A stretch of 44,319 nucleotides of DNA from Escherichia phage HK1. Below the pieces are notes generated by a model. The model had not been told where the DNA came from. It was given only the letters and a program-made list of their open reading frames with translations, and did not search any database. The translations under genes were made by a program, and so were the position numbers. Below are positions 3,252 to 15,182 of this stretch, in pieces (the first letter of the stretch is position 1; every line of letters starts with the position of its first letter). The DNA is taken from sequence record PP514360; one strand, 5' to 3'.

Positions 3252-3943
3252 TTTAAATTTTCCTCGTTAACCGCTATCGCGAAGCCGCGCGGGGTGAGTG
3301 AGCGGATTAATTTTGTACGAGCGGATTTACCACCGAGGCGACTATACTGTTTCGAGTACCCTTTTTCAACGAAAACAGGTTTCTTCTCTGGCATACGGAA
3401 GCCGTTGCCGGTCCATAAGCAGGTCAGCTTCGGATATGAATCGCGGGCGTTGATGTATTCAGGGAATAACGGGTGTACGTCATCCTCTGGCAAATAGCCG
3501 CCATACTCCCACGGGTCAAACGAGTGGTCCGGCCTACGCCATTGAGTGGAGAGCACGCTGCGCGGATTCTCAATCATATACGGCACTTCAAAGAAATCAC
3601 CCAGGTAAGCGGCGATCTTCGCGGTGCGTACCGCCTTAAGCTGGAAGGCAGGGTCGCGGGCGCGTTTGCGCGGGAAAGCTGGCGCACCGCTAACCGCCAG
3701 ATCCGTACACGGCGGGAATGCATAAATGATATCCGGCGTGCCGAAATCACCATTCATCGCGCGGTCCACGAAGTCCAGGTCGATAAACTCATTGCGATAG
3801 CGAATGCCGCGACCATAGATCCGGTAGTCCAGGTATGACCCGTGATCGGCCTCGGAGTAGTTGAAGCAATAACACTTATGCCCCATCTCGGCAGCACGTT
3901 CAATCATCAAGCCGCTGCCGTCAAATAATGACCAGATAATCAT
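3248..3943 (-). CDS. short DNA (cytosine-5)-methyltransferase-like protein
   Basis: LFDGSG (motif I, FxGxG), PPCTDLAVSG (motif IV, PC) and MIENPRS (motif VI, ENV-like) appear in the canonical order; only 231 aa, shorter than typical C5-MTases. Confidence 0.5.
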   Translation of the reverse strand: MIIWSLFDGSGLMIERAAEMGHKCYCFNYSEADHGSYLDYRIYGRGIRYRNEFIDLDFVDRAMNGDFGTPDIIYAFPPCTDLAVSGAPAFPRKRARDPAFQLKAVRTAKIAAYLGDFFEVPYMIENPRSVLSTQWRRPDHSFDPWEYGGYLPEDDVHPLFPEYINARDSYPKLTCLWTGNGFRMPEKKPVFVEKGYSKQYSRLGGKSARTKLIRSLTPRGFAIAVNEENLK

Positions 3944-5364
3944 TTGCGCGCCTTTTTTGCTTTCATGTATTCCATTAAATCGTCCTGAATGTCTCGCTTA
4001 CTGTCGCGACGCTCCGCGACCAGTTCGTCCAGTGTGCCGCGCGCCTGGATAATGTAGACGAATACAGGACGAGGGTGTCCGGCTTGCATCTGACGAACTG
4101 GCCCGATACGCTCCACGATCTGCGAAAAATGCTCATAGTTCCAGGTGTCGGAGAAGATGGCAAGGTGGTGTCCTCCATCCTGCAAGTTAAGGCCGTGACC
4201 CGCCGATGCCGGGTGTGCGAACATGATGGGGATCTCGCCCCTGTTCCACGCTTCCATGTCCTTATTGCCTTGCTTACCCTTACCCATCGCTACGCCGTGC
4301 GGGAATTTCTTCTTGAGACGCGCCAGGTCATGCTTGTACTGGTACGCGACGAGCAACGGTGCGCCGTTCAACTCCTCCACGATACTTTCCAGCGCGTCCA
4401 GTTTAGCGTCGTGAATTTTCACCCATTCGTCGGTGCGCTCGCCGTCTTCGTCGACTTTATATACGGCCCCGGAAGCAAGCTGAAGGCACTTAATAGTCTT
4501 CGACGCGGCGTTAGCCGCCTCCACTGTTCCGCTTTCCAGTTCTGCAAATAGCTCCGCTTCGAACTGGTCATAAATCTTGCGGGCTTTCTTCGGCAGGTCC
4601 ACAACAACCGGCGTATAGATTGGCTTGTCGCATCCGAAGTATTCAGCCGCGTCAACGGTGAGCGATACGTCAGACAGGCGTTGTTGTATTTCTTTCTCGG
4701 AGTTCTTGAGCGGGGCGTGTTGCATAGTGAAGCTGCCAGGCTTAACAGGCTTGCTAATAAACCAGCGGTCTGTGAATGCCTTATAACTACTGCCGAGGCG
4801 TTCGCCACCGTCGACAAACCACGTCTGACCCCATAGGTCTTTCAGTCCGTTTGGTGCGGGTGTGCCGGTAAGGTTAATCCAGCGCTTGACGCGCTTATGT
4901 GCGATCGCCGCCAGGGCGCGGGCGCGCTTACTTCCCTGCTTGCTGCGGTAGCCTTTCAGCTTAGTGGATTCATCGGCAACAACGACCGTAAAGGGCCACT
5001 CGTCGCCGCAATAGTCAACCAGCCACTCAACCACATCATAGTTAACACAAACCACGTTAGCGTCGCTCTCAAGCGCAGCGATGCGGTCCTTCTCTGACCC
5101 GGTGCCGTCTACTACCAGCAGGGCGGGGAAGCGCCATTTTTCTTGTTCCGGGGGCCATGTGCCCGATGCAACGCGCAGCGGGGCAAGCACCAGTACGCGG
5201 TCCTCCTGGTTGGACAGGATGCCGGTCTGGAACATTTTATTCAGCGCCCACATGGTCGCGCCGGTTTTACCCGACCCCATTGTCGCCCAAATATTGCAGC
5301 GCTTATGCTTGAGGATGAACGCGGTTATCAACTTCTGATATTCGCGACGTCGGAAACGTGCCAT
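3940..5364 (-). CDS. SNF2/DEAD-like superfamily-2 DNA helicase
   Basis: Walker A ATMGSGKTG, DExx-like VVVADEST, motif III LTGTPAPN and a C-terminal helicase domain. Start placed at MARFRRREYQ (ATG 5364) just after the stop of the upstream gene; the track ORF extends to 5454 but overlaps that gene. Confidence 0.8.
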   Translation of the reverse strand: MARFRRREYQKLITAFILKHKRCNIWATMGSGKTGATMWALNKMFQTGILSNQEDRVLVLAPLRVASGTWPPEQEKWRFPALLVVDGTGSEKDRIAALESDANVVCVNYDVVEWLVDYCGDEWPFTVVVADESTKLKGYRSKQGSKRARALAAIAHKRVKRWINLTGTPAPNGLKDLWGQTWFVDGGERLGSSYKAFTDRWFISKPVKPGSFTMQHAPLKNSEKEIQQRLSDVSLTVDAAEYFGCDKPIYTPVVVDLPKKARKIYDQFEAELFAELESGTVEAANAASKTIKCLQLASGAVYKVDEDGERTDEWVKIHDAKLDALESIVEELNGAPLLVAYQYKHDLARLKKKFPHGVAMGKGKQGNKDMEAWNRGEIPIMFAHPASAGHGLNLQDGGHHLAIFSDTWNYEHFSQIVERIGPVRQMQAGHPRPVFVYIIQARGTLDELVAERRDSKRDIQDDLMEYMKAKKARK

Positions 5365-5368
5365 ATCT

Positions 5369-5587
5369 TTATTCCGCCTTTTTCCAGACTTCGGTTTCAC
5401 TGTTCCAATTCCTCTTTGTGGCGTAATAGTATGGGTCGTGCTCAAGGTGCACACCGGTAGCGCGGAAGCTCTGGAACTTTTGCCAGCACACGGTCAGCGG
5501 CAGCGGTTTAGCCATTCCTGAAGTAAACCATACGCGATCGCCCGGTTTGCATTCGCCCAGCTTGGTGAGTCGGTAATGTTCTTTCAT
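5369..5587 (-). CDS. small hypothetical protein (~72 aa)
   Basis: ORF MKEHYRLTKLGECKPGDR...; GGGAGA ~7 nt upstream of ATG at 5587; terminator-like hairpin immediately upstream (5601-5623). Confidence 0.45.
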   Translation of the reverse strand: MKEHYRLTKLGECKPGDRVWFTSGMAKPLPLTVCWQKFQSFRATGVHLEHDPYYYATKRNWNSETEVWKKAE

Positions 5588-5870: not shown

Positions 5871-6123
5871 AATCACAGTCGGCTATGCTGTCGATAACGC
5901 GAACGTCCGCACCGCGGCGGGCCATTCGCTCATGTTCTCGTACCTGGTGCGGCTTAGGTTTACCGCCTGGGCGCTTCACTTCGACGAAAACTATCTTGCC
6001 GTTGATGATGATAATCAGATCGGGCGCACCTGCGCGCCCCTCCCAAGCCACTTTGCGGCAGAATCCGCCGACGGCTTTCACCCGTCTCATCAAGTGACTT
6101 TGGATCTTGCCTTCTGGTGTCAT
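5845..6123 (-). CDS. VRR-NUC domain nuclease
   Basis: GAPDLIIIINGKIVFVEVKRPGGKPKPHQ matches the VRR-NUC core; ATG at 6123 overlaps the DNA polymerase stop (TAATG). Confidence 0.65.
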   Translation of the reverse strand: MTPEGKIQSHLMRRVKAVGGFCRKVAWEGRAGAPDLIIIINGKIVFVEVKRPGGKPKPHQVREHERMARRGADVRVIDSIADCDLLVAELVA

Positions 6124-8414
6124 TATTTCCTGTACCTGTACATAATGTCGCCTTCCGCGGCAAGCGGGAAGCCTTTCGCCCAAACCGGCAGGTCGCACAT
6201 CAGCGCGCACAACTCCTCGGTTGTGTAGTCGTCGGTATCCGGCACTTCGGTTATCAGTTCATCGTGTACGGACAGTACGATCTCATACCCCGCAGCTTCA
6301 ACGCCCGGCATGGACCATGCGAGGATATCGCGGCACAGCGCCTGCACGATGTTTTCCGTCAGTTTACCGCCGTAGGTATACTGGAATCCCCACTGGCGCG
6401 TCGTCTGATTCTCGCCCTGATATTTAATGCGTGTGCTGGTGCGCTTCTTGCCGGTGTCTTCGTCGATCTCGGTCGTCACTGACAGCGCAATGCCTGGATA
6501 ACTCATAATACGCCCCGACGGCAACTCAATTTTCAACCACCACCCCGCGGCGTTCGGGTCGTCGCGTTCCTCGTCGAAGGTTGGGTCATGCTTCGCCTTC
6601 GTGCGGACTATCTTGAGCGCTTTCTTACCATCCGGGCGAACGTTCGCGCCAGCCCAGTACGCTTTGCCAGGATTGCGGATTGCACACAACACCGCGTCTT
6701 CAAGCTCGGCCCAAAAGGCTACCGTCTTCGGGTGAGCCTCGCGCCACATGCGTTTAATCGCATCACACGTAAGCCATACGTTTTTCGGCAGTATGTAAGT
6801 CGGGCGCTCGTCCTTCTTGCCCGGCTTCGGCGGTCGCTTCGCTTCGTTAATGCGGGCGTACTCATAACCACGTTTCGCCGCCGCCCAAATGTGATCGGGG
6901 AATGTGCCCTTCATCACGTCAGCCATCGCATAAAGGTCGAGGCCCAGGTTTTTAGCGAACTGCAAGAACGCAGCTACGCCGCCGCCATAGCCAAGTCCCA
7001 ACTCACACGCCTTACCAATCTGGCGTAGATCTTTGCGGTTGGCTTTAATGTATTCCGGGTCAAGGCCGAACATCTTACCGGCAGTTTCACAATAAATATC
7101 GCGACCGGCCCTAAACACCATTAGCGCGGTTTTCTCGCCCGCGGTCCAGGCAAGGCCGCGCCCTTCCACGTTGGAGTAGTCCGCGACGACAAACTTCTTG
7201 CCCTTCGCCGGAATAATGCACCCGCGAACGGTCGAGGCCGTTAGCTTCGATATGTCATACGCCCAGTGTGCGGTCCCGCGTAACAGGGAGTTTATGCCGT
7301 TGGTGAGCATGTGCGACCGCACCCAAAACGCGACGTCGCTCTCGCCTTCACGGCGTTTAATCTTCCCTTCGTGGTCATCGCTATACTCGCCGCGTGCCAG
7401 GTTTTGAGGCTGAAAGCCTTTACCGGCCCAGCGTAGCGTGCGCTTTGCGCCGCCATACTGGAGACAACCACGGCGGCGACCATCGGCGGATAGGCCATTA
7501 ACGAGCGGATTGTACTTAGTCGACGCCGTGGATGACGCACCGAGGCGCATCTCTATAAGCACTTTGCCCTCGTCCGGGAAGTCTGGATCTTCTAGCAGGT
7601 CGTTAAGCGTGGATTTCTGCGCGTTGTGGATTGTGAACGCAGGCGCGAGGTCGCGCAGCGCTGGCAGGAAGTCATTTCCGGTTAGCTTACCGCCGAAGCG
7701 CTCCCAGGCTTCTTCCTTTAATTCTTCCTTATGCGCCTGTACCGCTTTGATCGCAGCGCGTGCCAGGTCAACGTCCACATAGAAGCCGCGGTCGTTAATC
7801 AACTGGTCAATAAGCAGGATTTCGTCTTCCTTCGGCGTATTACCCCAGTCCGGTATGCGCCAATAGACTTCCCTCATCGCGATGATATCCAGCGCGGCAT
7901 AGCGCAGGAATTTAGCCCATTCTTCAGGGTGAGTCTCGCGGGTGTAGCGGCGGATTTTGTAGGTCTTAGGGGTTGGCTTACAGAATCGTTTGATCAGCGC
8001 CTTGCCAGCCTTATCCTTCGCGTGTTCTGCGTCAACGCCAAGCACCTGGCACTGCATGTCGAGACTACCCGGCAGCGCGTGTCGGAAGGCCATAATCATG
8101 GTGTCTTCGATCTGGCACACTGGCAGGTCAATGCCCCACTTCTCGCGAATAACCAGGCGGTCAAACAGGAGGCCGTTAGCCATCACGATTTTTGCTTTCT
8201 TGCGGGATACCTGGCGGAGCGCCTTGCGCAGTTCACGTGGCATTGTGGGGGACTCGGTGCAATCCCATGTCTGCACGCGGCCCTCGTCGATGGCGTAGGT
8301 GCAAATCATAATCTCGGTGGTTGGGTGCTCTGCGTAGGCGTATGCGCCAACTTTCTTCAGGTCTACCCCGCTAAATGTCTCGGTATCGAGAAACAGGCGT
8401 TCGAAGTCTTTCAT
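6123..8414 (-). CDS. family-A DNA polymerase with N-terminal 3'-5' exonuclease domain
   Basis: 763 aa; FLDTETFSG (exo I), DYSNVEGRGLA (pol motif A, DYSQIELR-like), KACELGLGYGGG (motif B), LSVHDELITE (motif C). Confidence 0.9.
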   Translation of the reverse strand: MKDFERLFLDTETFSGVDLKKVGAYAYAEHPTTEIMICTYAIDEGRVQTWDCTESPTMPRELRKALRQVSRKKAKIVMANGLLFDRLVIREKWGIDLPVCQIEDTMIMAFRHALPGSLDMQCQVLGVDAEHAKDKAGKALIKRFCKPTPKTYKIRRYTRETHPEEWAKFLRYAALDIIAMREVYWRIPDWGNTPKEDEILLIDQLINDRGFYVDVDLARAAIKAVQAHKEELKEEAWERFGGKLTGNDFLPALRDLAPAFTIHNAQKSTLNDLLEDPDFPDEGKVLIEMRLGASSTASTKYNPLVNGLSADGRRRGCLQYGGAKRTLRWAGKGFQPQNLARGEYSDDHEGKIKRREGESDVAFWVRSHMLTNGINSLLRGTAHWAYDISKLTASTVRGCIIPAKGKKFVVADYSNVEGRGLAWTAGEKTALMVFRAGRDIYCETAGKMFGLDPEYIKANRKDLRQIGKACELGLGYGGGVAAFLQFAKNLGLDLYAMADVMKGTFPDHIWAAAKRGYEYARINEAKRPPKPGKKDERPTYILPKNVWLTCDAIKRMWREAHPKTVAFWAELEDAVLCAIRNPGKAYWAGANVRPDGKKALKIVRTKAKHDPTFDEERDDPNAAGWWLKIELPSGRIMSYPGIALSVTTEIDEDTGKKRTSTRIKYQGENQTTRQWGFQYTYGGKLTENIVQALCRDILAWSMPGVEAAGYEIVLSVHDELITEVPDTDDYTTEELCALMCDLPVWAKGFPLAAEGDIMYRYRK

Positions 8415-8581
8415 TGCTTAATCCTCACTACGGCGTCAGCGCTGCCGATCATGGAGAAGATACCGTCGGAAAGTGTTATCTCCTCGCCGTTGTTGCGAAT
8501 CTCGGCAACGGTGAAATATTCCCCCAGTAGCTTGGACCATACTCGCATTCCGACTTTTACTTCGCTGGCTTTAATGCGCAT
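8411..8581 (-). CDS. small hypothetical protein (56 aa)
   Basis: ORF below the track cutoff, read by hand (MRIKASEVKVGMRVWSKLLGEYFTVAEIRNNGEEITLSDGIFSMIGSADAVVRIKQ); stop overlaps the DNA polymerase start (ATGA), suggesting translational coupling. Confidence 0.35.
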   Translation of the reverse strand: MRIKASEVKVGMRVWSKLLGEYFTVAEIRNNGEEITLSDGIFSMIGSADAVVRIKQ

Positions 8582-8594
8582 TTTTCATTGTCCT

Positions 8595-8621
8595 ATTAAA
8601 AAGCCCGCATTAAGCGGGCTT
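8595..8621 (-). terminator. intrinsic terminator downstream of the SSB-like gene
   Basis: Minus-strand AAGCCCGC-ttaat-GCGGGCTT followed by a U-rich run (UUUUAA). Confidence 0.55.
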
Positions 8622-8639: not shown

Positions 8640-9419
8640 TTAACGACGGCGACGTTTACGTGGTGCTTCGTCTTCGTCGTCTTCGTCCTCATCTTCATCG
8701 TCGCGTGGCTTACGACGTTTACGAGGTTTTTCATCTTCGTCGTCGTCATCGTGGCGCTTGGACTTTTTGGACTTGCGCGGCTTGTCGTCTTCGTCGTCGT
8801 CATCACGACGTTTTGACTTTTTGGACTTGCGCGGGCTTTCATCTTCGTCATCGTTGTCCAGGTCTTCGTCGGAGCAAGAAGAACCGCCACCACCGAAGGA
8901 TTCACCATCATCGCGGAAGCGCAGACCCAGCAAGCCAGCCCCGAGTCCCTTGCCGTTGGTATTGTTCCACGCCCAAATATCAATGGACACGTTGCAATAA
9001 CAACCGGAGTAAATCTCCCGTCCTTCGATCTCGTCGCCTTCTACGGTCAGACCTTGTTCCGTCTGCTTCTCGCCGAGTGACGTTTGAATGTTTGGTTGTT
9101 TGAACGATTTGGTGTTGATATACAACATGCCTTCGAATTCTTCGGTTACTTCGTCGCGCTCATCACCGTCGCGAACAGCGCACTCCTTAGAATCCTGGGC
9201 GTAGTGGCGGTCCATCCACTTATCGGCGTTCTTCTCGGATTTCAGCTTGTCGGTGAGCACTGCGCGCGCTGCCGCTTCCACTTTGTCCACCTGCGGATCT
9301 TCTTTATCCAGAAGAATCACGGCACGGTATGCCGGTTTCTGACCATCTTTTTTAGGGGTATCGCGCTCCCAAATATTAAGGAAACATACGCGCACATTTT
9401 TCAGGTTGACTTTAGCCAT
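8640..9419 (-). CDS. putative ssDNA-binding protein (DUF2815/T7 gp2.5-like) with repetitive acidic/basic C-terminal tail
   Basis: N-terminus MAKVNLKNVRVCFLNIWE resembles the DUF2815 family that commonly sits between DUF2800 and PolA; C-terminus is a tandem repeat (DDDDEDxKPRKSKKSKR). ATG at 9419 (track start at 9440 is GTG). Confidence 0.55.
   Translation of the reverse strand: MAKVNLKNVRVCFLNIWERDTPKKDGQKPAYRAVILLDKEDPQVDKVEAAARAVLTDKLKSEKNADKWMDRHYAQDSKECAVRDGDERDEVTEEFEGMLYINTKSFKQPNIQTSLGEKQTEQGLTVEGDEIEGREIYSGCYCNVSIDIWAWNNTNGKGLGAGLLGLRFRDDGESFGGGGSSCSDEDLDNDDEDESPRKSKKSKRRDDDDEDDKPRKSKKSKRHDDDDEDEKPRKRRKPRDDEDEDEDDEDEAPRKRRRR
8695..8860. repeat. intragenic tandem repeat (~57-bp unit) encoding alternating acidic/basic tail of the SSB-like protein
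   Basis: TTTTTGGACTTGCGCGG...TCGTCGTCGTCATC appears in tandem; encodes DDDDEDxKPRKSKKSKR units. Confidence 0.7.
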
Positions 9420-9509
9420 TTTACAATTTCCCATTTTCACATGTATCGGGGTTATTGTGAGCCACCCCGTTCGGCTTGGTTGCTAATCTACTTGGTTGCG
9501 CCTAAGCGG

Positions 9510-9752
9510 TCAAGCATTTTCATTAAAAAGATTTCGGGTCACGTAGTTGGTGGCGTTCTCGACCCAGCTTAGCGGCGGGCGTTCGATGTTCTTTTCCACC
9601 CAATAGACGGCAGCTTCGCTATAACCGTCGTCCAGCCAGCGGGTCGGATGGCGAATCATCCAGGCTACCATTAACACGCCTTGCACACAATGCAGGATAA
9701 AGCCCAGTGCGCCGAGCAAAAACATCAATAAGATTGCGAATACTTTATTCAT
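9510..9752 (-). CDS. small membrane protein (80 aa)
   Basis: Hydrophobic N-terminus (FAILLMFLLGALGFIL); GAGGA SD upstream of ATG at 9752. Confidence 0.5.
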   Translation of the reverse strand: MNKVFAILLMFLLGALGFILHCVQGVLMVAWMIRHPTRWLDDGYSEAAVYWVEKNIERPPLSWVENATNYVTRNLFNENA

Positions 9753-11175
9753 TGCTTAAGTCCTCGTCAGTAGCTTCCGACCACGCAGGGCGCGGGTCGT
9801 CGATTGGTGCTAACACCGGTTTAGCGGGTGCGCGTGTGATTTTAGCACACAGCTTCGCCCACACTTTCGGCTTCTCGTCCTTCAGTACCTTCTCGGCATC
9901 GGTCGGGCTGAGCAATGTTTCTTTGTACATCACATCGCGCTTGATCCGGGCCTTCGTGAAGATTTCAATCACTTCGCTCTCGTCTGCCCACTTACGGATC
10001 CCTTCCTTACCGGCAACCATCTTAAGGCCCAACGATTCGCCATCGCCCGCCATGACCGCCTTGAATACCGCGTACTCGATAGCTTTGATGTGCTGGCGCA
10101 TTGCGTCAAGTCCTTCATAAGCCTTGCGCAGTTCCGCCGCGCTCATAGCGCCTGGGGTGGATTCCTTCTTGCCCCGTTTAGCACGTCGGGCAGCCTTCCG
10201 GGCTTCGCGGGTCATATTGCGGTCTTGGTTGGCGCACTCTTCCTCGGTTGCCACGCTCACGTCGTCGCCCAGGTCTTCGTCGGTTGCCGTTGGTGGCGTC
10301 ATCGTGTCGATTGCGGCCTTCGCCCGGACGCTGCACTGGTCCGCAAATCTGCACCACTGGCACGCATCAACGCTGGGCCGGAAGTCGGCGCGGGTGAGTC
10401 CTTTTTTACCGCGGGCGTACGCTTCCAGTGCGGCGATAGCACGCTTGGACGCAAACTTCGCGAATATCTCCAGCGCTTCCACTGAGATATCCCACTCTGA
10501 CGCCCCGCCGCAATACGGCTGGAAGATAACCAGGCGCACGGTCGTAATGTCGTACATGGTTTGCAGCTTGCGCAGCAAGCCGAGCGCGTACAACATAAGC
10601 TGTTTGTTTTCTTTTGCCTCGACCTTATGCCGCCCGGTCTTCAGGTCGCCAACAATCAGCATGTACGTTCCGTCGGTCTTTTTCATGACCATGACCATAT
10701 CGGCAGTACCGAACGTTTTAATCCTGTTGCCGTCGATCTCGAATCCTGAATGAAGGACGCGGGTCAGATCGGCGCGCATCTCAAGCTGGACAAACTCCGC
10801 CACTTCGAGGAGCGGTCGCCAGTGGTCGATGTACGCGTCGCACTGTTTCACCATATCGTCGTTGACCAGTACGCCGCCTTTCGGTGCTTTCGGGTGCGCC
10901 TTTACTGGCCCCTTGCCTTCATTCTCGACGTAACACCCTTTGTACGTCTTAGCGGTTATCAGCTTTTCCCCGGCAATGATGCGGTTTAGCACGACCTCTG
11001 ATACGGTGTGCATACTCGTACCATTAATCGCCGCTTGCCCGGATTCGTTCGGGATATCTTTTTCCACCACCAGGGCGGCGGGGCAGCCCATCCATTTTTT
11101 AGCACCGGATGGGCCGAGTAAAGAGTGTTCCGTGTTGCTACCGGATTGCGTTTTACGTTTTGGTTTAATCGCCAT
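9745..11175 (-). CDS. DUF2800-like PD-(D/E)XK nuclease (Cas4-like, Cys cluster)
   Basis: N-terminal HSLLGPSGAKKWMGCPAAL and C-terminal CQWCRFADQC cysteine cluster (Cas4-like arrangement); GGGTGG SD upstream of ATG at 11175. Confidence 0.65.
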   Translation of the reverse strand: MAIKPKRKTQSGSNTEHSLLGPSGAKKWMGCPAALVVEKDIPNESGQAAINGTSMHTVSEVVLNRIIAGEKLITAKTYKGCYVENEGKGPVKAHPKAPKGGVLVNDDMVKQCDAYIDHWRPLLEVAEFVQLEMRADLTRVLHSGFEIDGNRIKTFGTADMVMVMKKTDGTYMLIVGDLKTGRHKVEAKENKQLMLYALGLLRKLQTMYDITTVRLVIFQPYCGGASEWDISVEALEIFAKFASKRAIAALEAYARGKKGLTRADFRPSVDACQWCRFADQCSVRAKAAIDTMTPPTATDEDLGDDVSVATEEECANQDRNMTREARKAARRAKRGKKESTPGAMSAAELRKAYEGLDAMRQHIKAIEYAVFKAVMAGDGESLGLKMVAGKEGIRKWADESEVIEIFTKARIKRDVMYKETLLSPTDAEKVLKDEKPKVWAKLCAKITRAPAKPVLAPIDDPRPAWSEATDEDLSNE

Positions 11176-11660: not shown

Positions 11661-12176
11661 TTAATCTTCCAGTTCGAAATAGGTTTCGACGATTTCTTTT
11701 AGCTCTTTGTGGAAGTCTTCGACGTCGTCATCTTCCAGCTTGGCGATTGATTTGATCTCGAACGATTCCAGCAGGTCGTCGAATTCGTCGTTCGCGTCGT
11801 CGTCATCACCACCCGCAATAATCGCGGCATACTGTTTGATTTCGTCGCGCATCTCCGCCAGCGGATCGGCATCTTTCTTACCTTTGCCTTTCGCCGGTGC
11901 TTTCTTAGACTTAGCCGGTTTTTCGTCTTCGGCATCGTCGTCGTCATCTTCTACGACTTCTTTTTTAGCCTTACCTTTCGCCGGTGCTTTTTTAGATTTA
12001 GCCGGTTTTTCGTCTTCAGCTTCATCGTCGTCATCTTCGACAACTTCTTTTTTGGCCTTAGACGGCTTCTTGTCTTCCTGCTTACCAACGGCAGCGCCAA
12101 CGGTTTCATAATGCTTTGCAATGGTTTCCAGTGCTACTACGCCGCGAGTGATCAGGTTTACGATTTGCTCAAACAT
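11661..12176 (-). CDS. acidic protein with tandem Lys-rich/Asp-Glu-rich repeats (histone-H1-like KAPAKGK units)
   Basis: Start at MFEQIVNL (ATG 12176) with GGAGA SD; internal 29-aa unit KKEVVEDDDDEAEDEKPAKSKKAPAKGKA repeated twice; strongly acidic C-terminus. The track ORF start at 12356 runs through the promoter region and is unlikely. Confidence 0.55.
   Translation of the reverse strand: MFEQIVNLITRGVVALETIAKHYETVGAAVGKQEDKKPSKAKKEVVEDDDDEAEDEKPAKSKKAPAKGKAKKEVVEDDDDDAEDEKPAKSKKAPAKGKGKKDADPLAEMRDEIKQYAAIIAGGDDDDANDEFDDLLESFEIKSIAKLEDDDVEDFHKELKEIVETYFELED
11881..12057. repeat. intragenic tandem repeat (~88-bp unit, two copies) in the acidic repeat protein gene
   Basis: CCTTTCGCCGGTGCTTT(C/T)TTAGA(C/T)TTAGCCGGTTTTTCGTCTTC...TCGTCGTCATCTTC twice in tandem; resembles the SSB-gene repeat unit at nucleotide level. 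Confidence 0.7.
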
Positions 12177-12413
12177 GGTATATCTCCGATTGGTTAAGTT
12201 TAGGTGTCGGCAGTTAACTTCGTCGGTGGCCTTAACATATTGCCAGGTTACGCGTTCTCCCGTTCGGGTAGTGGACCTGGTTATATAATCACGGTTGGGA
12301 ATCCTGACACTTCGATCCGGCCCCTGCGTTGCCCCTCTCCAGTTTGCGTCCTGCATCCTGTCGACGGGGTGAATAATAGATTGGTTGCAGGATGGGTGTC
12401 AACAACTAATTTC

Positions 12414-12917: not shown

Positions 12918-15182
12918 ATGAGCTTAATTAAATTCGCTGTAACAAAACCCGCTAAAAAAGGCGAAAAAGCCAGGGCGGAAAACTTCCAGATGACCACCGA
13001 TGAATTTTTCGAATTTATCAAAGATGCGAAAGAAATATCCTCGGTGCATATCAACAAAACGGAAGATAAAGCCGAGTATGCACGCCGCAAGCGTAAGGCC
13101 GACGGCATCGTGGCGTATACCAGTGACGGATTGCGTCGCAAGACCAGTGCGGTGGACCGCTCGATCCTGTTCTTTGATATTGACCGCACCGACACTCGCA
13201 CCTTGCGCCGCTGCCGTAAGGCTTTCATCGACGCGGGTCTGGAACACGTATTCCACACAACCACCGGCGACCGCCACCCACTGAAAGGTGGAACGCGTTG
13301 CGCTCGCTTCCTGGTGCTCACTGACAAGCCTGTACCGGCGGAAGACCTGGGCCGTGTCCAGTATGCGCTATTACACCAACTTGGTCTGTCAGATGTGGAC
13401 TTCGACGATTGCACGAAAGACACAAACCGCCTGATGTACCTACCACACCAGCAGTCTGTAATAAAGTGTCACTACGGCAAACGTGCCCGCGTCCGTCGTC
13501 TGCTTCGCCTGGCGGATACGCTTGGCGTGGAGAAGGAAGAAGTACGCCGCGAACTGACCCAGGGCGACGACGCAGTGGCAGACGGCATTCTTGACTGGTG
13601 CTTCCAGGCAGGATTCGAGGAGTTATCTTCCGGTCGCGGTTATGAAGTGCCGTGCCCGAACGAACATCTGCACAGCGGCGAAGGGTCGACGGCTATCATG
13701 GTTAAGGATGGCGAGATCCGTTTCAAGTGTATGCACACCGGCAACGAGTGTTGCTCCGAACTGAATAGACACCAGCACCTGGCGCTGCGTCTTATCGGGA
13801 TCCCGGACCACCTGAACGTCGAGCCACACAATATGTCCCGTAAGCAAATAGCCGCCATCCTTCCGGGGCTGGACGACGAGGAAGTCGAATCCTTATATGA
13901 ACATATTGTTGATGCGGTTGGCGACGGCGAAGAATATGGCGTGTGCACCGATGCGGATCTGGATAATGAGCCGGTTGCGCTGTTCAGTAAGCACGACCCG
14001 ATCATCGAGGGGTTGATTAACTTTAAATCAACCTGGTATATGGCTGGTGAGTCGAATATCGGTAAGTCTTTCTATGTGCTGGGCCAAATGGGCGCGGTTG
14101 CCGCGGGTATCCCGTTTGGCGGTGCGAAGGTCGTCCAGTCTCATTGCTTCTATTTCGACGCGGAAGGCGGCGAAGCCTCCAACCAGCGCAAAGAAGCATT
14201 GCAGATTAAATACGAGCACGACCTGGACAAGCTGCACATTATCGACCTGCAGTCTCGCGGCTGGGATATCACCAGCAAGTCCGGTTTGCGCGAAGTTATC
14301 AGCTTTATCAACCGCACCGCTAACGGCGAACCTGTTGGCCTGGTGGCGTTCGACTCACTCAACCAGACTGTTGCTCTGCGGTCCGCCGATGCTAAACCGT
14401 TTGACGAGAACAACGCCAGCGATATGGGTGAAGTGGTCAAAGCGCTGAAGGCCATTGCGGAAAACACAGGTGGCAGTGCGGGCGTCATCCACCACCCGGC
14501 GAAGGGTGCAAACGGCAGCAGAACCCCACGCGGATCCGGCGCACTGCATGGCGCTGTCGATTCAGCTTTCTTCCTGGAACAGCCGGACGACAACCAGCCG
14601 GGACAACTTAACCTGTATCACGAAAAGTCACGTAACGGCATCAAGCAAGCGCCGCGTGGCTTCGTCCTGCTCAAGTGCAAGGTGGCGGTAGATCTCCGCA
14701 AGTCAGAAGCGTTCGCGTCGCACCAGTCCACCAGCACCGGGCCAGACTTCGGTGACGTAGTTGCTGGTTGGGACGTCAAACCAATTGCGTCCACCCCGCG
14801 CGACGAGACTTTATACCTCGTACCGGTCGCCCTGGCACCGTTCGCTATAGAACAGGCGAAGGCCGCAGGAAAAGCCGCAGTTAAGGAAGAGAACACCGCC
14901 GGACCGCGCACCGAAAAAGAAAAGGTACTTTACGCGGCCCTGGAAAAACTGATGGAAGATAACCCGGACCATACTGGTTTCAGTAAATCGGCAATCGTCC
15001 GCCAGGCAGGACTCGCGAAGGGGGGCACTTCGACGAAGGCAATCGACGATATGGTTGAGCGCGGCGTGATCGGTTTCTATACAGATCCGCACACCGGGGC
15101 CATATATGGGTCGTCGAATTTAGTCATCAAATCGGATATCCCCATCACGCTTTCGGCGACCGATGACGACCTGAACGATTAA
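12918..15182 (+). CDS. DNA primase-helicase (N-terminal primase-like domain, C-terminal RecA-like ATPase)
   Basis: 754 aa; LFFDIDRTD (DxD, primase-polymerase-like), Cys/His cluster CPNEHLH...CMHTGNEC, Walker A GESNIGKS and AFDSLNQ in a RecA-like C-terminal half. Confidence 0.75.
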   Translation: MSLIKFAVTKPAKKGEKARAENFQMTTDEFFEFIKDAKEISSVHINKTEDKAEYARRKRKADGIVAYTSDGLRRKTSAVDRSILFFDIDRTDTRTLRRCRKAFIDAGLEHVFHTTTGDRHPLKGGTRCARFLVLTDKPVPAEDLGRVQYALLHQLGLSDVDFDDCTKDTNRLMYLPHQQSVIKCHYGKRARVRRLLRLADTLGVEKEEVRRELTQGDDAVADGILDWCFQAGFEELSSGRGYEVPCPNEHLHSGEGSTAIMVKDGEIRFKCMHTGNECCSELNRHQHLALRLIGIPDHLNVEPHNMSRKQIAAILPGLDDEEVESLYEHIVDAVGDGEEYGVCTDADLDNEPVALFSKHDPIIEGLINFKSTWYMAGESNIGKSFYVLGQMGAVAAGIPFGGAKVVQSHCFYFDAEGGEASNQRKEALQIKYEHDLDKLHIIDLQSRGWDITSKSGLREVISFINRTANGEPVGLVAFDSLNQTVALRSADAKPFDENNASDMGEVVKALKAIAENTGGSAGVIHHPAKGANGSRTPRGSGALHGAVDSAFFLEQPDDNQPGQLNLYHEKSRNGIKQAPRGFVLLKCKVAVDLRKSEAFASHQSTSTGPDFGDVVAGWDVKPIASTPRDETLYLVPVALAPFAIEQAKAAGKAAVKEENTAGPRTEKEKVLYAALEKLMEDNPDHTGFSKSAIVRQAGLAKGGTSTKAIDDMVERGVIGFYTDPHTGAIYGSSNLVIKSDIPITLSATDDDLND

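Follow-up and report, generated by a model that had tools for sequence, protein, structure and literature searches.

Alternating acidic and basic blocks in the C-terminal tail of a Dhillonvirus single-stranded-DNA-binding protein, a possible electrostatic regulatory linker

Acidic C-terminal tails are treated as a universal means of control and recruitment in the single-stranded-DNA-binding (SSB) proteins of bacteria and phages. In T7 gp2.5, a replicative SSB with annealing activity, the 26-residue tail is purely acidic, needs a C-terminal Phe, competes with single-stranded DNA (ssDNA), and docks polymerase and helicase. T4 gp32 combines a basic N-terminal B domain, whose Lys/Arg-Ser/Thr (LAST) motif gives cooperativity, with an acidic C-terminal A domain that autoinhibits the protein and binds partners; in Escherichia coli SSB, which consists of an OB core, a disordered linker, and a short tip, the linker tunes cooperativity and drives phase separation. 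The closest described relatives of the protein studied here are Enc34 ORF6 and other DUF2815 SSBs (Protein Data Bank [PDB] entries 5odj, 5odk, 5odl, 4klk, and 4jg2). The structurally studied members are plain-tailed: in Enc34, 16 of the last 29 residues are D or E, removal of this tail leaves ssDNA binding unchanged and confers binding to double-stranded DNA (dsDNA), and in the crystal the tail occupies the groove of a neighboring molecule (PMC5686142). The tail of T7 gp2.5 regulates binding dynamics (PMC10359462). Here, we analyzed an SSB of this family from Escherichia phage HK1, encoded at 8640..9419 on the minus strand of record PP514360; by the window we mean the whole 44,319-nucleotide (nt) stretch of this DNA. 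The last 76 residues of the HK1 SSB form four acidic blocks that alternate with four Pro-initiated basic blocks, and the protein ends in a conserved basic tip, not in an acidic/hydrophobic or aromatic one. The layout of the gene is as follows.

8640..9419, minus strand: SSB gene, ATG at 9419, TAA at 8640-8642, 259 aa (open reading frame [ORF] list and translation)
8895..9419, minus strand: OB-fold ssDNA-binding domain, residues 1-175, with an AlphaFold2 (AF2) predicted local distance difference test (pLDDT) score of >90 and supported by Foldseek
8871..8894, minus strand: Gly/Ser linker GGGGSSCS, residues 176-183, read from the sequence; pLDDT <50 from residue 177
Residues 184-194, directly after the linker and before unit 1: acidic block A0, DEDLDNDDEDE
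8781..8834, minus strand: repeat unit 1, residues 196-213, basic block B1 PRKSKKSKRR plus acidic block A1 DDDDEDD-K; PRKSKKSKRRDDDDEDDK; net charge +1
8727..8780, minus strand: repeat unit 2, residues 214-231, B2 PRKSKKSKRH plus A2 DDDDEDE-K; PRKSKKSKRHDDDDEDEK
8664..8726, minus strand: degenerate unit 3, residues 232-252, B3 PRKRRKPR plus A3 DDEDEDEDDEDE-A; PRKRRKPRDDEDEDEDDEDEA
8643..8663, minus strand: C-terminal basic tip B4 PRKRRRR, residues 253-259

The translation reproduces exactly the location and the C-terminal sequence given in the original prediction for this DNA, which had also described the C-terminus as a tandem acidic/basic array. Both the DNA repeat and the charge pattern uphold that description. 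Tandem Repeats Finder reports a period of 54 nt (2.3 copies, 85% matches, score 187) at 8729-8854, so the ∼57-bp repeat proposed earlier has to be corrected. Units 1 and 2 differ at 7 nt, and five of these seven differences are synonymous; as the sequence reads, a 54-nt unit was duplicated in tandem and in frame to give the array, and the normally short acidic tail has grown in this way. The 76-aa tail is 82% charged, with 27 K/R against 35 D/E residues and a net charge of -8. Its charges fall into 8 runs, compared to 31 in shuffled sequences, and its blockiness (kappa, ∼0.6) was reached by none of 5,000 shuffles. Disorder is predicted for the C-terminal tail: the model has a pLDDT of 45 to 55 from residue 177 onward and contains no secondary structure there except for one short helical turn at 184-186. 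Disorder, a high charged fraction, and segregated charge, the traits of condensate-forming blocky polyampholyte regions, are thus all present in the tail. Matches of the tail to legumins in the PDB (3ksc, 5gyl) were dismissed as low-complexity noise.

With Enc34 ORF6 and the other DUF2815 SSBs, the HK1 SSB shares Pfam family, fold, a gene neighborhood of DUF2800 nuclease, SSB, and family-A polymerase, and a disordered, net-acidic tail that begins after the chain has left the OB domain through a Gly-rich stretch. Unlike the plain tail of Enc34, the HK1 tail is about three times longer, alternating, and tandem-repeat-encoded, and it ends in PRKRRRR. T7 gp2.5 has the same OB variant (1je5) but only ∼14% identity, and the HK1 SSB differs from it in having no aromatic tip, in its interleaved basic blocks, and in the internal position of a docking-like motif (see below). 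The likeness to T4 gp32 lies in the use of disordered basic and acidic regulatory segments, and PRKSKKSKRR resembles the LAST motif; however, gp32 is unrelated in sequence, has a zinc-containing OB fold, and carries its charged segments singly at opposite ends. The linker of E. coli SSB is Gly/Gln/Pro-rich and nearly uncharged, in contrast to the blocky, 82% charged HK1 linker with its basic tip. Nucleic-acid-binding proteins with disordered regions in which D/E tracts alternate with Lys/Arg blocks are also familiar from eukaryotes, where nucleophosmin, nucleolin, NOLC1-type D/E tracts with K blocks, and the acidic tail of HMGB1 exemplify a pattern that gives autoinhibition and condensate formation. 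There is no homology to these proteins, and the analogy is one of composition only.

Ahead of the tail, the gene product is, by profile match and structural model, a replicative single-stranded-DNA-binding and annealing protein with the Enc34/DUF2815 (T7 gp2.5-type) OB fold. The T7 gp2.5-type/DUF2815 N-terminus anticipated by the original prediction therefore holds, over ∼175 aa, in the Pfam, PHROG, AF2, and Foldseek analyses. Residues 3-193 match PF10991 (Enc34_ssDNA-bd, formerly DUF2815) with E = 1.8e-31 and 109.6 bits, compared to a curated gathering cutoff of 26 bits, and the match spans profile positions 2-173 of 176. The protein also matches PHROG 112, gp2.5-like ssDNA binding and annealing protein (E = 1.4e-50), and a sequence search of the PDB retrieved the DUF2815 proteins 4klk and 4jg2 together with Enc34 ORF6 (5odj, 5odk). 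With an AF2 monomer model built from 60 homologs, Foldseek found 4klk (E = 6e-13), 5odl (Enc34 SSB with ssDNA; E = 7e-12), and 1je5 (T7 gp2.5; E = 3e-6); target-normalized template modeling (TM) scores are 0.76 to 0.77 for 4klk and 5odl. The Enc34 DNA-contact residues W150 and N154 align with W147 and N151 of the HK1 SSB.

The number of blocks differs between isolates, a possibility already raised in the original prediction. We compared 19 intact Dhillonvirus SSB genes (from the window, IMG/VR contigs, SECphi4, SECphi18, HK578, and Kente): one has two basic blocks, six have three (including HK578 and SECphi4), and twelve have four, and tails range from 41 to 82 aa. Unit 2 is absent from the 3-block isolates, e.g., HK578, and in a spread of 60 GenBank matches ∼15% of the full-length ones are one unit (∼54 nt) shorter. 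Unequal recombination or slippage between units would alter the block number in this manner, between 2 and 4. All indels among the 19 genes are multiples of three and span from one block into a like-charged block; because they join like-charged blocks, the acidic/basic alternation is preserved. B1 and the terminal PRKRRRR are kept in all 19 genes, and the residue that precedes this invariant tip is A in 18 of them and K in SECphi4. The net charge of the tail is negative in every Dhillonvirus isolate (-3 to -13) and does not grow with tail length, since the repeat unit is nearly neutral (+1).

Selection was assessed on the same genes by the Nei-Gojobori method, using all pairs. The ratio of nonsynonymous to synonymous divergence (dN/dS) is 0.067 in the tail and 0.047 in the OB domain, and the synonymous divergence (dS) is 0.52 in the tail versus 0.33 in the OB domain. 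The low dN/dS argues for purifying selection on the tail as a protein, and the higher dS in the tail argues that there is no extra constraint at the DNA level. These values bear on the idea that slippage in a GA-rich repeat gave rise to the array as a low-complexity expansion that is merely tolerated and has no function beyond that of an acidic tail. Copy number does differ among viable isolates, the unit is almost charge-neutral, so that its gain or loss costs little, and some records have frameshifted tails (see below). Nonetheless, a neutral expansion is quite improbable given a dN/dS of 0.067 at a dS of 0.52, the retention of B1 and the terminal block throughout the intact Dhillonvirus genes compared, and a tail grammar that is kept down to ∼25% identity with no DNA similarity.

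We consider it extremely unlikely that the repeat is a DNA-level element (origin iterons or a packaging or regulatory site), an assembly artifact, or an antidefense DNA-mimic decoy. Tandem DNA repeats in replication genes can be origins, as in lambda O, but here the tail exceeds the OB domain in dS and distant homologs keep the protein pattern, not the DNA; a DNA-level element was rejected on these two grounds. An assembly artifact, which the original prediction had named as a result that would overturn it, is ruled out by the occurrence of the same architecture in 155 GenBank phage records and 15 IMG/VR contigs, i.e., in more than 150 independent genomes. As to a decoy, acidic DNA mimics such as Ocr occur in phages; against this, Retron-Eco8 and type III Sir2-HerA are still triggered by Dhillonvirus SSBs, and neither the mutations listed for SECphi4 escapers nor that of the one SECphi18 escaper examined are tail changes.

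Specifically, the SSBs of SECphi4 and SECphi18, which are near-identical to the window SSB, trigger Retron-Eco8 (bioRxiv 10.1101/2022.08.27.505566), and a Dhillonvirus SSB triggers type III Sir2-HerA (PMC13434337). According to earlier work cited in PMC13402713, the SECphi4 SSB binds the multicopy single-stranded DNA (msDNA) of Retron-Eco8; the tail of the T7 protein is not needed for Retron-Eco8 activation (PMC13402713). Of the Retron-Eco8 escapers examined, five from SECphi4 and one from SECphi18, each has either T56P or a change upstream of the SSB gene; those of SECphi4 include an intergenic mutation upstream of this gene, and no tail mutation is listed among them (bioRxiv 10.1101/2022.08.27.505566). 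The structural figure of the SECphi4 SSB in the same preprint drops the tail as "flexible C-terminal residues." We found no published description of the alternating tail in the literature searched, the coverage of which excluded most subscription journals.

The tail design is not peculiar to phage HK1. To avoid bias by the tail, 1.84 billion cluster representatives were queried with the OB domain only, which yielded 2,226 relatives. Among the 145 best full-length relatives, 12 (8%) have alternating tails, and these belong to several clades; five of the six closest full-length relatives are in this group. The remaining relatives have short acidic tails, and many of these tails have tips that resemble DDIPF, DDLA, or DDLL. 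The endings DDIPF, DDVPF, and DDLPF are found in many plain-tail DUF2815 SSBs (e.g., P0150, P0157, P0167, P0186, and P0209); such tips are essentially that of E. coli SSB, suggesting that these proteins plug into the host SSB interaction network.

A query with the full-length SSB, which enriches the sample for alternating tails, recovered such tails down to ∼25% identity, with the same grammar and no shared DNA similarity. Across 74 alternating tails with 249 basic blocks, Pro is found at 86% of the acid-to-basic junctions, the period is 18 aa, and the median block has 6 charges if basic and 8 if acidic. Over the family sample, the median net charge is -9 for alternating tails, at 74 aa, versus -8 for plain tails, at 26 aa, and the number of acidic residues is fitted by 1.24 times the number of basic residues plus 6. 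Plain tails have a median of 1 basic residue, and 96 of 136 end in a hydrophobic residue. On a neighbor-joining tree of 208 OB domains, tail state changes 16 times, compared to 60 times in shuffles, and alternating tails form at least three separated groups: a Dhillonvirus-like group ending in PRRRRR, a Lys-rich group with acidic tips such as DDEEI, and an Arg-rich group ending in DDDVA or DDDI. Because neighbor joining is too shallow and the sample is enriched for alternating tails, we claim several separated groups and not a number of origins. The basic tip is retained as PRRRRR in relatives of 45 to 60% identity. The tail of the isolated marine Loktanella phage pCB2051-A has about nine D/E plus PRGRGRGR blocks; other Casjensviridae are plain-tailed.

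Immediately upstream of the array, the HK1 SSB keeps what appears to be the canonical acidic docking motif, which the original prediction had overlooked. The pattern [ST]D[DE]DL occurs at 4 sites in the six-frame translation of the window, where 0.067 are expected, and all four are in replication proteins, namely, the SSB, the exonuclease encoded upstream of it, and a primase-helicase. Both C-terminal copies below end at the stop codon.

8850..8873, minus strand: proximal acidic motif of the SSB, SDEDLDND, residues 183-190, which opens A0 and is a candidate partner-docking motif; it is carried by the peptide CSDEDLDNDDEDE, with the core pattern at residues 183-187 (SSCSDEDLDND)
9748..9774, minus strand: exonuclease C-terminus ATDEDLSNE (preceded by SE), same motif
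10261..10290, minus strand: internal copy in the exonuclease, TATDEDLGDD
15156..15179, plus strand: primase-helicase C-terminus ATDDDLND (preceded by S), same motif

The SSB and exonuclease copies are conserved across Dhillonvirus loci (L001-L021 for the SSB copy). The motif is present in four proteins of L026, a metagenomic relative with 46% identity in the SSB: the exonuclease ends in ASDDDLE, the primase-helicase in ASDEDLNS, and a 62-aa protein in ATDEDLE, and the SSB has ANDDDLDDD ahead of its array. Among relatives with a plain tail, the SSB and the protein encoded just upstream of it, an exonuclease by position, have similar tips.

BPP-1: upstream protein tip VEDLV, SSB tip AADLV
Ruegeria V18: upstream protein tip VDDLLG, SSB tip DDDLLG
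PspYZU01: upstream protein tip QQLI, SSB tip DGLI

T7 gp2.5 and gp4 have similar acidic C-termini that are used on the polymerase gp5, and the similar acidic C-terminus of the T7 helicase-primase is a parallel to the shared motif described here. We infer that [ST]D[DE]DL is a candidate common replisome docking motif. Since it directly precedes the array and is found again at the C-terminal ends of the exonuclease and the primase-helicase, the array looks like an appendage past the ancestral tip; in the Dhillonvirus clade, judging from these sequences, a charge array appears to have been added beyond the ancestral docking tip.

The same motifs could be read with the polarity reversed: the basic blocks, mainly the tip, would capture the acidic C-termini of the exonuclease and the primase-helicase, or the acidic tip of the host SSB, and thereby recruit these proteins to SSB-coated DNA. 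Acidic C-terminal motifs are indeed conserved on the exonuclease (ATDEDLSNE) and the primase-helicase (ATDDDLND), and the basic tip persists from Dhillonvirus through relatives as distant as 45% identity. However, the SSB itself has the same acidic motif, a situation better explained by three proteins that compete for one basic site elsewhere, as T7 gp2.5 and gp4 do on gp5, and other clades with alternating tails keep an acidic tip. We regard reversed docking as unlikely.

All three roles suggested for the tail in the original prediction, an autoinhibited DNA-binding tail, a nucleic-acid mimic, and a condensate-forming region, agree with these observations. The reading that we favor, with a probability of about 0.5, is that the array is an electrostatic regulatory linker that tunes autoinhibition and self-association. 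The acidic blocks would keep an ssDNA-mimic role, competing for the basic OB cleft so that dsDNA binding is suppressed, as in T7 gp2.5 and Enc34 ORF6, and would also dock replisome partners. The interleaved basic blocks would make the tail a blocky polyampholyte and could pair with acidic blocks of the same or a neighboring SSB or with the DNA backbone. With the mimic and docking roles kept and electrostatic pairing added, the array may serve as a charged counterpart to the disordered linker in bacterial SSBs, tuning autoinhibition, cooperative self-association on ssDNA, and possibly condensation, while the conserved basic tip would take the place of the usual acidic/hydrophobic tip.

Several observations weigh against this regulatory linker. 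The AF2 monomer model has no confident contact between tail and cleft, and the aromatic residue Y156 of Enc34 is not conserved, its position being taken by N153 in the HK1 SSB, although W149 is adjacent. In swaps with Plasmodium SSB linkers, highly charged linkers are said to lower, not raise, the cooperativity of bacterial SSB. Isolates with 2 to 4 blocks are viable, which implies that block number is not critical. Finally, four database entries have frameshifted tails: Ioannina, vB_EcoS-101114B2, vB_EcoS-22664B1, and one metagenomic protein. Ioannina has 2 extra nt in the Gly linker and vB_EcoS-101114B2 has a 49-nt deletion between acidic repeats; in these two, the ones whose DNA was examined, the original frame is intact further downstream. 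The shifted frame runs past the normal SSB stop into the terminator. The frameshifted tails either stem from mistakes made in sequencing or assembling the GA-rich repeat or belong to genuine tail-less variants of recent origin, and if they are genuine, most of the array would be dispensable.

The basic blocks might instead be auxiliary nucleic-acid-binding arms that, once freed from the acidic blocks, contact the DNA backbone, screen its charge, and speed strand annealing, with no part in SSB-SSB contacts; the SSB would then have a recombination role, paired with the adjacent PD-(D/E)XK exonuclease. The annotation of PHROG 112 as an SSB and annealing protein, the adjacency of the SSB gene to the DUF2800/PDDEXK exonuclease gene, and the invariance of the terminal PRKRRRR all fit such arms, and the basic blocks resemble SPKK-like and arginine-rich nucleic-acid-binding peptides. 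Yet the tail is net acidic in every variant, so a free tail should repel DNA, and each basic block is flanked by an acidic block of equal or larger size. We doubt that annealing is what the blocks are for, while noting that annealing arms and a regulatory linker can coexist. It also seems fairly unlikely that the array is a multivalent scaffold that condenses SSB-coated ssDNA into a replication/recombination compartment, recruits the acid-tipped exonuclease and primase-helicase via its basic blocks and tip, and evolved repeatedly in DUF2815 SSBs. The neighboring charge-block protein (11661-12176) might be recruited to such a scaffold as well, and, if true, this would be a polarity-reversed form of the rule that an acidic SSB tip binds a basic pocket.

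The SSB gene is placed in the usual replication module of its family, in the order DUF2800 exonuclease, SSB, small ORF, and family-A polymerase, and the order is the same in the 46%-identical metagenomic relative L026. A longer SSB ORF with a GTG start at 9440 is a possible alternative. The surrounding features are listed below.

9485..9513, minus strand: sigma-70-like promoter TTGACC-17-TAGATT, 5' of the SSB gene (consensus scan only)
8598..8621, minus strand: intrinsic terminator, hairpin plus U-run, directly 3' of the SSB stop (RNA fold -18.5 kcal/mol, z = -6.6)
9745-11175, minus strand: DUF2800/PD-(D/E)XK exonuclease, upstream of SSB (Pfam DUF2800, E = 5.5e-65)
8411-8581, minus strand: 56-aa ORF directly downstream of SSB (PHROG 10102, unknown function)
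6123-8414: family-A DNA polymerase, downstream of SSB (DNA_pol_A match, 763 aa)
3940-5454: helicase
12918-15182, plus strand: primase-helicase, divergently transcribed (PHROG 3228, replicative helicase-primase)
11661-12356, minus strand: second charge-block protein of the same module (PHROG 3127, unknown function; no Pfam match)
11872-12060: tandem repeat in the second charge-block protein, an 87-nt (29-aa) duplication, KKEVVEDDDD(E/D)AEDEKPAKSKKAPAKGKA twice

The terminator was missed by the consensus scan and confirmed by RNA folding, and a terminator at the SSB 3' end is also annotated in three related GenBank records. The 56-aa ORF corresponds to the SECphi4 56aa protein of unknown function, which carries E21fs in a defense-escape mutant and was cloned as a candidate trigger (bioRxiv 10.1101/2022.08.27.505566). 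The second charge-block protein probably starts at an internal MFEQIV (12176). Both L026 (6818-7306) and Loktanella phage pCB2051-A (7061-7477) have a syntenic counterpart of the 11661-12356 protein, with a K/A/P-rich middle and an acidic C-terminus, upstream of their exonuclease-SSB pair. In some relatives (Pubbukkers, StarDew), the DNA polymerase is annotated as split or as containing an intein, and the family-A polymerase of relative L027 (1266-4358) has 1030 aa versus 763 aa in the window.

By its DNA, which is 93 to 95% identical to that of the E. coli siphophages HK578, SSL-2009a, JL1, KarlBarth, SECphi18, and others, the window is Dhillonvirus. Among the deposited records, Campylobacter phage A144, Acinetobacter phage NJ01, and Salmonella phage Kenya-K19 are near-identical Dhillonvirus genomes, and the stated source of one phage SSB-like protein (P0057) is Hevea brasiliensis, the rubber tree; these odd host attributions likely reflect contamination or host mislabeling.

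These findings indicate that one SSB family contains a sizeable minority, under selection, in which the tail has been rebuilt as a blocky polyampholyte and that one clade has swapped the acidic tip for a basic one. The carriers are model phages: Retron-Eco8 and type III Sir2-HerA are studied with Dhillonvirus SSBs, including those of SECphi4, SECphi18, and a BASEL-type phage, as their triggers. The shared [ST]D[DE]DL motif gives a concrete map of possible replisome docking in the module, and the natural 2-, 3-, and 4-block isolates are a ready allelic series for relating charge patterning to cooperativity, discrimination between ssDNA and dsDNA, annealing, and possible condensation.

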